A stretch of 64,000 nucleotides of DNA from positions 256,001 through 320,000 of the forward strand of contig CAVSHO010000001.1 of the NCBI GenBank assembly GCA_963727825.1, read 5' to 3'. Position 1 is the first letter of the stretch. The number at the start of each line of letters is the position of its first letter. The position numbers and the translations under genes are program-made. This document shows, one piece after another, positions 39,522 through 49,470 of this stretch. This DNA comes from Ignavibacteriota bacterium. GTDB taxonomy: Bacteria > Bacteroidota > Ignavibacteria > UBA10030. The notes under the pieces are model-generated. The model was not told the DNA's origin. It worked only from the letters and a program-made list of their open reading frames with translations, and ran no database searches.

Positions 39522-40532
39522 TTGAAAAAATTCACACTCAAATCGCTTCCTGGTGATCATCTTCACCTTGTTCAACCGCAGCACCTGCGCATTAACTATC
39601 AACAGGAGTTGAATTCGGCACAGTATGCAGCGGCTACATCGGTCAATGGCCCGCATCTCATCATAGCCGGAGCGGGAACTGGAAAAACGCGCACAATTGT
39701 GTACCGCGTGGCGTATCTTGTGGAGTTAGGTGTAAAACCGGATTCTGTGCTGTTACTCACGTTTACACGAAAAGCCGCGCAAGAAATGTTGCGAAAGGCA
39801 TCGATATTATTGGACAGCCGATGCGATCAAATCTCTGGGGGAACATTTCACTCATTCGCTAATAACGTCTTGCGGAAGTACGTCAATCAAATAGGCTATG
39901 AAAGTAATTTCACTATTCTGGATCAGACTGATGCTGAAGATGTTGTTAATCTTATTCGGACAAGGCAAAAATTAGATACGAAAGAAAGACGCTTCCCGCG
40001 CAAGGAAACGCTTTATGATCTTTACAGCCGTTCACTTAATACGATGACACCGGTGAAAGAATTGCTGGCGATGGATTACCCGCAATACCTTGAAATCGAA
40101 ACCGACATCGTAGCGCTCCATGCTGCTTATGTGAAATACAAGCATGAACACAACCTGATGGATTACGATGATCTACTGCTTAATCTTGCAGTGCTTCTCC
40201 GTAAGAACGAAGCCGTACGCGCAGCGCTCTCAGATCGCTATAAATATATTATGGTGGATGAATACCAAGACACGAATAGACTGCAAGCAGAGATTGTGAA
40301 GCTGCTGGCATTTAAGCACCGAAACCTAATGGTTGTCGGTGATGATGCGCAGTGTATTTACTCCTTTCGCGGCTCTACGATTCAGAATATTCTTTCATTC
40401 GGAAAAGAATTCAAGGATTGTAAAATTATTAAATTAGAAGAAAATTTTCGAAGCACTCAGCCGATTCTAAATTTAGCGAATGAAATCTTATTGAAGGGTG
40501 GAGAAAGATTGGGTGAGACTAAGAAACGGTAG
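39522..40532 (+). CDS. UvrD/PcrA-like helicase, N-terminal half (motifs I-IV)
   Basis: AGAGTGKT, LTFTRKAA, GTFHS, VDEYQDTN, VGDDAQCIY and ENFRST; stops shortly after motif IV. Confidence 0.9.
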   Translation: MKKFTLKSLPGDHLHLVQPQHLRINYQQELNSAQYAAATSVNGPHLIIAGAGTGKTRTIVYRVAYLVELGVKPDSVLLLTFTRKAAQEMLRKASILLDSRCDQISGGTFHSFANNVLRKYVNQIGYESNFTILDQTDAEDVVNLIRTRQKLDTKERRFPRKETLYDLYSRSLNTMTPVKELLAMDYPQYLEIETDIVALHAAYVKYKHEHNLMDYDDLLLNLAVLLRKNEAVRAALSDRYKYIMVDEYQDTNRLQAEIVKLLAFKHRNLMVVGDDAQCIYSFRGSTIQNILSFGKEFKDCKIIKLEENFRSTQPILNLANEILLKGGERLGETKKR

Positions 40533-40541
40533 TGGAATGTT

Positions 40542-40611
40542 CAACTAACAATAAACAATGATCAGTTACCAATAACAAATTACTTTTTCCTTTTGATTTT
40601 GCACTTTTAGC
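40542..40611 (+). repeat. Ten in-register degenerate heptamers inside the helicase split
   Basis: CAACTAA CAATAAA CAATGAT CAGTTAC CAATAAC AAATTAC TTTTTCC TTTTGAT TTTGCAC TTTTAGC. Confidence 0.7.
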
Positions 40612-40619
40612 GTGAACCG

Positions 40620-41645
40620 ATGTACACAAAAGAACTTTTCACAAAAAAATCAGGCGGAAATTTACCGCAGCTTGTTTCTGCACAAACGGAAAACCAGCAA
40701 TCACGATACGTAGTGCAAAAGATTCTTGAATACCGTGAGGCGGGCATTCCACTGGAAGAAATGGCTGTCCTATTCCGCTCATCTTTTCATTCATTTGATC
40801 TGGAAATTGAACTGGCAAAAGCGAATATTCCATTTCTAAAATTTGGCGGATTTAAGTTTATTGAAACAGCACATGTGAAGGATGTTATTGCCTATTTGCG
40901 CGTGCTGGAAAATCCACGCGATGTTGTCTCGTGGAATCGAATCCTGTTGTTGATTGATGGTGTTGGCCCGCGCACAGCTGAAAAAGTTGTGGATGATATA
41001 CTAAAACGGCGCGTTGGTTTAGCGAAGGAATTTAAGGAAGCCGTCACGGCTACTACGAAGTTTTGGATGGACTACGGCAGCTATCCGGACAATGTCCGTA
41101 AGTTATTCAATATACTAAAAGATATTGCCGCGCCTAATATTCCACCGTCAGAGAAGACATTTCAGATTCTTCAATATTATGAACCAATTCTACGGGCAAG
41201 GTATGAAGATCATTTAAAAAGGAAAAAAGATCTCGATACATTTCAGAATATCACCGAGCGTTACAAATCGGTAGATGAACTGCTGACCGATCTCGCGCTT
41301 GAGCCGCCAAATGAAAGCATAGCCGACATCGAATCACCTGGTCCAGAAACAGAATACTTGACGCTTTCAACCATCCATAGCGCCAAAGGATTGGAGTGGA
41401 ATACCGTGTTTGTTATCTACGCGCTCGAAGGAAGATTCCCGACTATGCGTTCTGCTGCAAGCGATGAAGAAATGGAGGAGGAACGCCGCTTGATGTACGT
41501 TGCTTGCACGCGTGCAAAAGAACATCTTATCATCACGTATCCAATGAATATCTATGATCGTGAAAGCGGTTTGATACTGACAAAACCTTCGCGATTTATC
41601 GAGGGCATTGGTGAAAATTTGTTGGAGCCATGGGTGGTGGAATAG
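40620..41645 (+). CDS. UvrD/PcrA-like helicase, C-terminal half (motifs IVa-VI)
   Basis: AVLFRS, STIHSAKGLEW and EERRLMYVACTRAK; same frame as the N-half. Confidence 0.9.
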   Translation: MYTKELFTKKSGGNLPQLVSAQTENQQSRYVVQKILEYREAGIPLEEMAVLFRSSFHSFDLEIELAKANIPFLKFGGFKFIETAHVKDVIAYLRVLENPRDVVSWNRILLLIDGVGPRTAEKVVDDILKRRVGLAKEFKEAVTATTKFWMDYGSYPDNVRKLFNILKDIAAPNIPPSEKTFQILQYYEPILRARYEDHLKRKKDLDTFQNITERYKSVDELLTDLALEPPNESIADIESPGPETEYLTLSTIHSAKGLEWNTVFVIYALEGRFPTMRSAASDEEMEEERRLMYVACTRAKEHLIITYPMNIYDRESGLILTKPSRFIEGIGENLLEPWVVE

Positions 41646-47375: not shown

Positions 47376-47454
47376 TGTTCAATCTATAATAACAATATTA
47401 ATTTGTATGTATTCATATTTTAGTTATTATTGATCACTCATCACTGCTTACTGT

Positions 47455-49470
47455 TCATTGCTTCTTATCTTCAAGCCTCTCAATCTCGTTTCGTAGTTCC
47501 GCTGCGCGTTCGAACTCTAAATCTTTTGCCGCTCGTTTCATCTCTACCCTTAATTCTTCCAGCATGTCTTTCTTCTGGTCACTGGTTAGATATTTTGCAA
47601 CTGTCTCGGCAATAGCCATTGGTTTTGATTTTTGATAGCGTTCATCATGTTTCATCTTCACGTCGGCAATAGATGTGGCGGCAAGAATTTCGTCCGTCGT
47701 TTTGTAGATAGTTGTTGGTGTAATGCCATGCTTCGTATTGTAAGATATCTGCTTTTTGCGGCGGCGATTTGTCTCACCAATCATTCGCTCCATCGAGCCG
47801 GTCATTTTGTCGGCATAAAGAATAACTTTGCCGTTCGAGTTGCGCGCAGTGCGGCCTGCAGTTTGGATGAGCGAACGTTCGGAGCGGAGAAAACCTTCCT
47901 TATCAGCATCTATGATGGCGACGAGTGAGACTTCAGGTAAATCAAGCCCTTCGCGAAGCAAATTCACGCCAACAAGAACATCGAATTCACCTAATCGCAA
48001 ATCGCGTAACGTTTCAACACGTTCAAGCGCGCCTACTTCGGAATGAATATACCTTACTTTGATATTAATATTTGATAGATACTCGGTCAAGTCTTCAGCC
48101 ATGCGCTTCGTAAGAGTTGTGACGAGCGTGCGTTCTTTCTTCGAGGCGCGAGAACGAATCTCCCCAATCAAGTCGTCAATCTGATGCTTGCTTACACGTA
48201 CTTCCACTTCCGGATCAATTAATCCGGTGGGACGAATCACTTGTTCTACAACGACGCCTTGGCATTTCTGCAATTCGTATGGTCCAGGTGTTGCACTGAC
48301 GTAAATAACTTGCTTCTCCATTGCTTCCCATTCATCAAACATTAATGGACGATTATCGAGTGCTGATGGAAGGCGAAATCCATACTCCACGAGTGTGGTC
48401 TTACGCGAACGATCGCCGGCATGCATGGCACCGATTTGTGGTACAGTAACGTGCGACTCGTCAATAATTGTAAGAAAATCTTTTGGAAAGTAATCTAATA
48501 GGCACGAGGGGCGAGAACCCGGCGGCCTGCCTGCAAAGTGCCGCGAATAATTTTCGATGCCGGAGCAGTATCCAACTTCGCGCAACATTTCCATATCGAA
48601 CCGCGTTCGCTGTTCGATTCTCTGCGCCTCAACAAGTTTGCCAAGCGAACGAAGTTCGGTGGTTCGCTCGCGCAATTCATCGTAAATGCCGCTCATTGCA
48701 CGTTCTATCGTCTCGCGCGAAGTGATAAATTGTTTTGCAGGATAAATCATTTCGTTATCCGCTTCGCCAAGAACCTGTCCATCAACTTTATTGATATAAG
48801 AAATACGTTCTATTTCATCGCCAAAGAATTCGATGCGAATCGCTTCTTCGTTTTCATAACTTGGAATCACTTCCACAACATCACCGCGCACACGGAATGT
48901 GCCGCGCGCAAATTCGTAATCATTTCGTGCGTACAAAAGATCGACAAGCCGCTTGAGCAATCCTTGACGGCCGATGCGATCGCCTTTTTTGATCATTAAT
49001 GTCTGGCTGATCCATTCATCCGGCGCACCAATTCCATATATGCAACTGACAGATGCGACGACGATGACATTTGGATCGCCGCTCAACAACGCACTTGTCG
49101 CCCGCAACCGCAAGCGGTCAATTTCATCATTCACGGATGAATCTTTGGCAATATATGTGTCAGTTGTAGGAACATACGCCTCCGGCTGATAGTAATCATA
49201 ATAACTAATGAAAAACTCGACGCGGTTTTTAGGAAAATAATTTTTGAATTCCGCATATAATTGTGCCGCCAGCGTTTTATTGTGGGACATCACCAAAACG
49301 GGCTTGTTGATGTGTGTGATAACGTTAGAGATAGTAAATGTTTTTCCGCTACCAGTTACACCAAGAAGTGTTTGGTGCCGATCTCCGCGTTCTATTCCTT
49401 CTACAAGCTGTTTGATTGCTTCCGGTTGATCGCCGGAAGGGGTTAAATCAGAGATGAGTTGATAAGCCAT
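47455..49470 (-). CDS. uvrB: Excinuclease ABC subunit B
   Basis: [30 protein letters not shown] and a C-terminal UVR motif. Confidence 0.97.

Follow-up and report, generated by a model that had tools for sequence, protein, structure and literature searches.

In one-piece helicases of superfamily 1 (SF1) the ATP site is built from both RecA-like domains, and in the UvrD/PcrA/Rep group (SF1A; solved structures 1pjr, 3pjr, 2is1, 4c2t and 1uaa) both domains lie on one polypeptide. Here we analyze a gene of this family that comes in two pieces, in a window of 64,000 nucleotides (nt) from an Ignavibacteriota bacterium (positions 256,001 to 320,000 of contig CAVSHO010000001.1, assembly GCA_963727825.1; "the window" always means this whole stretch). 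The split helicase has its family, both Pfam domains and the conserved stretches in common with the one-piece SF1A helicases, and differs from them in being made as two gene products, cut about 15-25 residues after the motif IV arginine.

Split enzymes are known elsewhere, T4 topoisomerase with its gp39 and gp60 being one. Another is NrdA of the Aeromonas phage Aeh1, which is split by a mobile endonuclease gene and has been described as "genes in pieces" (PMC3045599). The two cases are alike in that an essential-type enzyme gene is interrupted, in some lineages by a whole open reading frame (ORF), and that two polypeptides result, which reassemble in the phage enzyme and would do so in the helicase. 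They differ in that the helicase inserts examined include no homing endonuclease, the window itself holding only 87 nt of filler; and in that the helicase has a cellular host, with the split fixed across an order rather than present as a phage polymorphism. A further precedent is insertional gene fission, for example of mitochondrial cox2 (PMC5374615), where one ancestral gene likewise became two complementary genes.

The locus consists of the following features:

39522-40532, plus strand: N-half ORF, 336 amino acids (aa), with its TAG stop at 40530; the N-terminal part of a UvrD/PcrA-family helicase
40440-40454, plus strand: the stretch E-N-F-R-S, 25 residues upstream of the N-half stop
40503-40529, plus strand: variable N-half tail E-R-L-G-E-T-K-K-R, which differs in length and sequence from genus to genus among relatives
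40533-40619, plus strand: intercistronic spacer, 87 nt, AT-rich, predicted to be unstructured as RNA
40620-41645, plus strand: C-half ORF, 341 aa, with the head M-Y-T-K-E-L-F at a conserved ATG

Very probably these ORFs encode a two-subunit UvrD/PcrA-family helicase that arose by ancient gene fission and whose C-half is started at its own conserved ATG; most likely no exotic decoding is needed to account for it. Under this model the ancestral gene, some 670 codons long, would have undergone one ancient fission, at or close to the root of the Ignavibacteriales; the cut would lie about 15-25 residues past motif IV, with a conserved glutamate on one side and K-Y-T-K on the other. The halves would since have been translated independently, the C-half from the conserved ATG, and the two proteins would come together without a covalent link, the C-terminal helix of the N-half fitting into the RecA-like domain that the C-half forms. 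Intercistronic DNA would then be free to vary, from an overlapping stop and start up to whole inserted genes; here it would be the 87-nt filler, consisting in part of heptamers.

Both ORFs lie in one frame, with in-frame TAG codons at 40530 and 40608. The N-half matches the Pfam family PF00580 (UvrD-helicase) across the whole profile (E 2.3e-76) and aligns with residues 11-301 of a solved PcrA chain (E 3.9e-56), and the C-half matches PF13361 (UvrD_C) over profile positions 33-347 (E 2.4e-49). In the NCBIfam PcrA model the N-half accounts for positions 3-299 and the C-half for 301-637, so that no helicase sequence has been lost at the cut; the scores of the halves fall below the equivalog cut-off of the model because each query is only half a protein. 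When 14 N-halves and 19 C-halves are aligned, the stretches GxGTGKT, DEYQD, GDDxQxIYxFRG, R310, TxHSAKGLE and YVACTR form invariant columns. We take the Walker A, DEYQD, VGDDAQ-type and E-N-F-R-S stretches of the N-half, and the TIHSAKGLE and VACTRAK-type stretches of the C-half, to be helicase motifs, with E-N-F-R-S presumably the motif IV arginine region. Two same-frame halves with intact motifs and two in-frame stops are also what the preliminary description of this DNA had reported, and the ORFs, Pfam matches and invariant columns agree on them. The locus thus has both the UvrD-helicase and UvrD_C domains of an SF1A helicase with the conserved stretches intact, and lacks the single polypeptide with both RecA-like domains, given the stop at 40530 and the start at 40620. 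Going by the domain boundaries usually drawn for PcrA and UvrD, the cut presumably falls within the second RecA-like domain, and its position would place the first part of that domain on the N-terminal protein.

The same genome also encodes a one-piece UvrD-family paralogue, with an open frame of 758 aa that is 38% identical to the N-half, as well as a relative of about 1030 aa that is more distant, the matches being located at C12:32851-33807 (minus strand) and C1:176358-176717 (plus strand). The split helicase is therefore not the sole SF1A helicase of the genome.

The distribution of the split was measured in 201 sampled genomes of the order Ignavibacteriales, each searched separately with the two halves. 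The N-half was found in 133 of them and the C-half also in 133: both occur in 127 genomes, the N-half only in 6, the C-half only in 6, and neither in 62. Both halves lie on one contig and strand in 118 genomes, and in 116 of these they are separated at the same residue. The two contiguous cases belong to one family, f4, and form a single frame of 669 aa. Read at the level of bases, 80 of 82 distinct loci have a stop and a new start at this site and 2 are fused; one further candidate for a fused gene, locus L092, was rejected, as it has a TGA stop that tblastn had aligned through and is hence split. In one set of 24 loci read in this way 22 are split and 2 fused, and all same-genus orthologues so read are split at the same place. 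The picture differs outside the order: of 115 orthologues from elsewhere in the class and phylum, 113 have an open frame of 656-835 aa, typically about 660-700 aa for the one-piece orthologues, and the two exceptions measure 557 aa and 422 aa, the latter in a match that begins 246 nt from the end of its contig. One genome of the order, G175, carries identical split pairs at C31:35573-37761 (plus strand) and 87566-89754 (minus strand), inverted and about 50 kb apart; the arrangement reflects a large inverted duplication, or else an artefact of assembly.

Selection on the two halves was estimated from pairwise ratios of nonsynonymous to synonymous substitution rates (dN/dS, method of Nei and Gojobori, NG86) among 15 loci from the genus and its nearest relatives. 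The median dN/dS is 0.040 for the N-half (range 0.018-0.071, 28 usable of 105 pairs) and 0.027 for the C-half (range 0.011-0.056, 24 usable of 105 pairs), the remaining pairs being saturated at synonymous sites. The synonymous divergence dS is at least 0.7, and 0.7-1.0 to the closest relatives. Both halves are under strong purifying selection. The absence of decay had earlier been read as a sign that the split gene is alive, and the low ratios in both halves agree. As expected of a gene fission that yields a heteromeric enzyme, both pieces are conserved, co-inherited, under purifying selection and cut at one homologous site.

The same data bear on whether the gene was recently broken and is now a pseudogene, or whether the spacer is an artefact of assembly. 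An interrupted frame is the usual mark of a pseudogene, and no public contig identical to the window spans the whole spacer. Against this stand dN/dS of about 0.03-0.04 in both halves at saturated dS, the same cut in 116 of 118 genomes of the order, and homologous spacers in four other genomes. Contigs from four public runs add to this: one DNA contig that is 100% identical to the window covers 40583-40764, and in another run, from peat, the spacers of other strains appear as loose ends exactly at 40544 and 40620, at the gene borders. We regard a broken gene or a misassembly as highly improbable. The earlier statement that a single-base sequencing error could not explain the split likewise stands, given the recurrence of the cut across the order and the selection on both halves. 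The contigs support the view that the spacer is real and variable in nature. In addition, contigs from a metatranscriptome library, 90-95% alike and with spacer substitutions of the type seen in the related genome G001, cover 40568-40735 and parts of both halves, so that 52 nt of a relative's spacer are retained joined to the C-half. These are compatible with a transcript that includes the leader, without proving transcription or a single mRNA.

The sequences at the junction point to how the cut arose. In fused forms the chain runs ..A-x-E and then K-Y-x-K... In the split forms of families f2, f3, f5 and f8 the N-halves end in ..R-A-R-E or ..A-L-D, directly followed by the stop, and the C-halves have the head M-x-R-H-K-Y-T-K. 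In f1, the family of the window, and in f7, up to about 14 variable residues are appended to the N-half, and C-halves have the head M-Y-T/Y-K. The ATG of the C-half is conserved in the split forms and absent from the fused orthologues. That the site and the M-x-R-H head are shared speaks for a single origin of the split. These comparisons also correct the size of the insertion: the preliminary description had counted about 110 nt of non-helicase sequence, whereas the true spacer is 87 nt and the remainder is the non-conserved tail of the N-half.

The fused f4 proteins carry the exact junction of the outgroups (..E-K-Y-T-K..). When the halves are concatenated (37 rows), a quick maximum-likelihood tree places f8 at the base of the clade of the order and f4 inside the split clade, beside f3 (support of 85 in the Shimodaira-Hasegawa-like approximate likelihood-ratio test, SH-aLRT). 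Despite this position, the approximately unbiased (AU) test does not reject a tree with all 26 split rows as one clade without f4 (log-likelihood difference 1.98, p 0.42). Family f4 may thus be the last lineage to have stayed unsplit, or else its gene was precisely re-fused.

What lies between the halves varies strongly among relatives. Measured from N-half residue 325 to C-half residue 2, the gap ranges from 20 to 13,791 nt across the order, with frame offsets 0, 1 and 2 all present. By family, the gaps and the genes found in them are:

f1: 21-492 nt; in one genome (L045, G069) the insert encodes a 23S_rRNA_IVP protein (E 1.8e-34)
f7: 20-36 nt, plus one of 359 nt
f2: 37, 144 and 823-846 nt; the insert, shared in kind with f5 (L035-L044, L024, L025), encodes a lipoprotein of about 265 aa with only sub-threshold matches to the endonuclease/exonuclease/phosphatase (EEP) families (E 0.013-0.02, in 3 of 3 tested)
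f3: 907-955 nt; the insert (L019, L020) consists of two small ORFs with no Pfam family
f5: 27-40 nt in three genomes and 797-1255 nt in the rest; insert as for f2
f8: 39 nt in one genome and 913-13,791 nt in the rest; the insert (L028, L029-L033) encodes a homocysteine S-methyltransferase (PF02574, E 3.3e-66) and, in one genome, also a DUF456 protein

From stop to start, the spacing runs from a 1-nt overlap (-1 nt) to 13.8 kb with unrelated genes. At the short end, reading of the bases gives TAATG and TGATG overlaps, TGAATG and TAAnATG; the long gaps contain same-strand ORFs that are unrelated from family to family. Longer inserts carrying an ORF, which had been suggested as something relatives might hold, are thus found in f8, f2, f5, f3 and one f1 genome. 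The stops and starts of the inserted genes often overlap those of the helicase halves. The genome G034 has about eight ORFs between the halves, some of them on the opposite strand, and G171 about five, so the halves there cannot be one translation unit.

Spacings that run from 1 nt of overlap to 13.8 kb, in every frame offset, exclude ribosomal hopping and RNA excision as general mechanisms for joining the halves. Both had been offered as options for this gene. The first would be a bypass like that of T4 gene 60, in which the ribosome jumps 111 nt from the GAA at 40503 to the GAA at 40614. The resemblance is an in-frame gap of tens of nucleotides with stops and identical flanking codons: in the window the halves do share a frame, and GAA is found on each side of the spacer. 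In T4 gene 60 a stop follows directly after the take-off codon and a hairpin forms at the take-off site. These defining features are missing here, and gap length and frame vary among relatives. Specifically, no codon is used more often in the two ORFs than GAA (43 of 677), and the take-off GAA is followed by AGA and not by a stop, so that the matched codons say little; no hairpin is predicted, the region folding at only -1.4 to -4.1 kcal/mol (minimum free energy, MFE, of -1.4 for 40497-40540); among the closest relatives the offset of the frames is 1 or 2, and the spacers measure 0-1 nt or more than 800 nt; no landing codon is conserved, the GAA being absent from the closely related G005; and the head of the C-half has an ATG that split forms conserve and fused forms lack. 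A bypass therefore has next to no credibility as the way the halves are joined.

The second option was removal of the spacer as RNA, to which we add removal at the level of protein: an intron-like element, or trans-splicing by a split intein. Other helicase and replication genes are reported to be interrupted by split inteins with further genes lying in between ("fractured genes", PMC2677866); apart from this precedent and the shared frame nothing at the locus speaks for splicing. A search of Rfam gave no credible match (one sub-threshold snoRNA match, at 19 bits against a gathering threshold of 50, lies within the N-half and not in the spacer), no conserved RNA structure was found for the spacer, and its MFE of -5.9 kcal/mol makes it less structured than its own shuffles (z +1.10). 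Spacer length, sequence and frame are not conserved, and the RNA-library contig of a relative, with its 52 nt of spacer still joined to the C-half, is not what excision predicts. Intein halves are about 100 aa and 35 aa long. Beyond the ancestral junction the N-half tails measure about 0-14 residues and the C-half heads 0-4, far too short for such halves, and no intein family is among the Pfam matches. We give splicing, at either level, as little credence as the bypass.

The preferred reading instead lets the C-half start at its own ATG. As first described, this ATG lacks an evident Shine-Dalgarno (SD) sequence: we found no SD core before 40620. This is normal for the genome, in which a 4-mer SD core precedes only 32% of 1463 putative starts, compared with 6% of controls. 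The start region (40590-40650) is unstructured, at -3.3 kcal/mol (z +1.18). Given the 87-nt gap, independent initiation at the conserved ATG is more likely in this genome than termination followed by re-initiation. The preliminary description had proposed a two-subunit helicase made by re-initiation; its two subunits are thus supported, and its mode of starting the second one is the less likely of the two. Many relatives, with their TAATG, TGATG, TGAATG or TAAnATG junctions, do resemble translationally coupled adjacent cistrons. The window differs from these in its 87-nt separation and some relatives in having unlinked halves, from which it follows that coupling is not required.

If the halves form one helicase, they should fit together. 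A complex prediction in which each half had its own alignment scored 0.77, against 0.31 for the best control; the mark used for such predictions is reached by 58 of 80 solved complexes and by 2 of 110 mismatched pairs. The runs share at least 94% of contacts, with a partner pLDDT (predicted local distance difference test) of at least 82. The predicted contacts join N-half residues 306-326, that is E-N-F-R-S and the next helix, to C-half residues 1-16, 283-303 and 326-335, which suggests that the first element of the second RecA-like domain is contributed by the N-terminal protein. The prediction shows that the halves can be arranged as in a normal helicase; binding is not implied by it.

The one serious rival is that both halves are functional without forming one helicase: the N-half might be a stand-alone ATPase, for instance, and the C-half an accessory protein with other partners. 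Such a division of labour would suit those f8 genomes whose halves belong to different transcription units, separated by 4-14 kb, and the 12 genomes that have one half only. It fits less well with the strong co-occurrence of the halves (127 genomes with both and 62 with neither, of 201), even though kin are not independent and the strength of the association is overstated by these counts, or with the invariant arginine stretch of the C-half. The cut also appears to lie inside a domain, in which case the tail of the N-half should need the C-half to fold. On balance we consider separate functions unlikely, while giving them clearly more weight than any of the other alternatives.

Several observations weigh against a two-subunit helicase of ancient origin, or limit how far the data carry it. 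The interval 40519-40583 is not bridged by any window-identical read or contig, nor does either of the runs X2 and X4 contribute a sequence across the entire spacer. Evidence from RNA is thin, being limited to short contigs of a single metatranscriptome library that derive from a relative and not from this strain, with DNA carry-over possible. Binding of the halves and unwinding of DNA are both predictions, and since single-chain UvrD/PcrA structures have been solved, the complex score could stem from that likeness alone; physical assembly, helicase activity and the mode of C-half initiation in this genome are what we infer. Five N-half matches in the order lie in longer open frames of 566-678 aa; the one inspected (G086, locus L059) is split. 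Of the 139 genomes with either half, 12 carry one only, likely due to fragmented assemblies. In the same-genus genome G008 (L026, G008:C8:187100-189800) the N-half is found in two frames, covering query residues 1-265 and 263-331, a pattern that a frameshift, decay or faulty assembly could produce.

The spacer itself has two parts of interest, and a second repeat array lies elsewhere in the window:

40542-40596 (= C1:296542-296596), no strand assigned: degenerate period-7 array, outside any long ORF, one of 34 such arrays in the genome
40577-40619, plus strand: T-rich 3' part of the spacer and leader of the C-half, its best-conserved segment, in which the invariant columns cluster
47412-47466 (= C1:303412-303466): second period-7 array in the window

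Ten in-register heptamers had been reported between the halves. That count was too high, while a degenerate period of 7 is real: self-matches at lag 7 are found at 41 of 71 positions (0.58), compared with 0.19-0.42 at lags 5, 6, 8 and 9. Tandem Repeats Finder, run on 40400-40750 with a minimum score of 30, reported no repeat, and a repeat search found only one 21-nt direct repeat, at 71%. The genome as a whole has 24 lag-7 arrays with at least 28 matches in 42, against 0-8 for each of nine other lags, and 34 at a threshold of 27, the majority of them outside the long ORFs, which span 86% of the genome. The heptamers are thus not special to the helicase locus and belong to a class of intergenic period-7 arrays, found in this genome and in the spacers of relatives. 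The idea that the spacer is a repeated mobile element was rejected, as its sequence is single-copy in the 3.12-Mb genome (the sole match being itself). Units that recur in the arrays of this genome include CAATGAA, CAGTGAT, TTTTTAC and AATCCxC, and the longest arrays, of the AATCCxC type, are at the start of contig C9 (C9:4-239 and 871-999).

In 22 of 33 spacers of relatives, each 40-320 nt long, lag 7 scores best of lags 3-12, the repeat units being quite different. In some of them a heptamer array is followed by an inverted copy, and the arms form strong hairpins:

L087:2373-2500: hairpin spacer, -45 kcal/mol, z -4.9
L078:1158-1251: hairpin spacer, -36 kcal/mol, z -4.2
L085:2430-2500: hairpin spacer, -29 kcal/mol, z -2.8

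These hairpins of other Ignavibacteriaceae might attenuate or terminate transcription between the cistrons. The nearest analogue to the arrays that we can name is the short tandemly repeated heptamers (STRR) of heterocystous cyanobacteria, intergenic arrays with a period of 7 nt and no known function. The Ignavibacteria copies differ in belonging to another phylum, in being far more degenerate and, in relatives, in often having inverted arms that form long hairpins. Searching the literature on heptamer repeats, we found nothing on Ignavibacteria.

In an alignment of five sequences, the window and the four closest relatives with a homologous spacer, the final 40 or so T-rich nucleotides are the best conserved, a hint that they may act as a leader. 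Scans for sigma-70 promoters and intrinsic terminators, which are not built for promoters of the Bacteroidota type, gave no site in the spacer, and by eye we saw in it no convincing TAnnTTTG/TTTG pair, which we take to be the Bacteroidota-type motif.

A more far-reaching version of the fission model is possible, though we hold it to be rather doubtful as a whole. In most sampled carriers in the Ignavibacteriales the helicase would be an obligate heterodimer cut inside the second RecA-like domain, and the slot between the cistrons a permissive landing site that has repeatedly taken in an S-methyltransferase, an EEP-like lipoprotein, 23S_rRNA_IVP and heptamer hairpins. The inserts may tune the ratio or timing of the subunits, and f4 would be the last unsplit lineage or a precise re-fusion.

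Public databases already contain proteins of this half size, annotated as genes in their own right ("ATP-dependent helicase" or "DNA helicase II / PcrA"); among the best 120 of 7717 matches these are 326-380 aa long and all at least 75% identical to the query. A full-text literature search, judged by titles and the openings of abstracts, found no paper on a split UvrD/PcrA-family helicase or on such a split in Ignavibacteria. For annotators the consequence is that the halves should not be flagged as pseudogenes. The locus also illustrates how a same-frame gap with stops and identical flanking codons can mimic programmed bypassing, and that a comparison with a few relatives settles the matter. 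The period-7 intergenic arrays are an unexplained feature of the genome, perhaps worth a study of their own.

The split is not a recoding event, and its interest is to specialists in helicases and genome evolution. For the Ignavibacteriales it provides a clean, datable gene-fission character. For the helicase family it would be a natural, long-lived case in which the SF1 motor tolerates a break of the backbone just after motif IV, useful for thinking about the coupling of domains and the design of split proteins.

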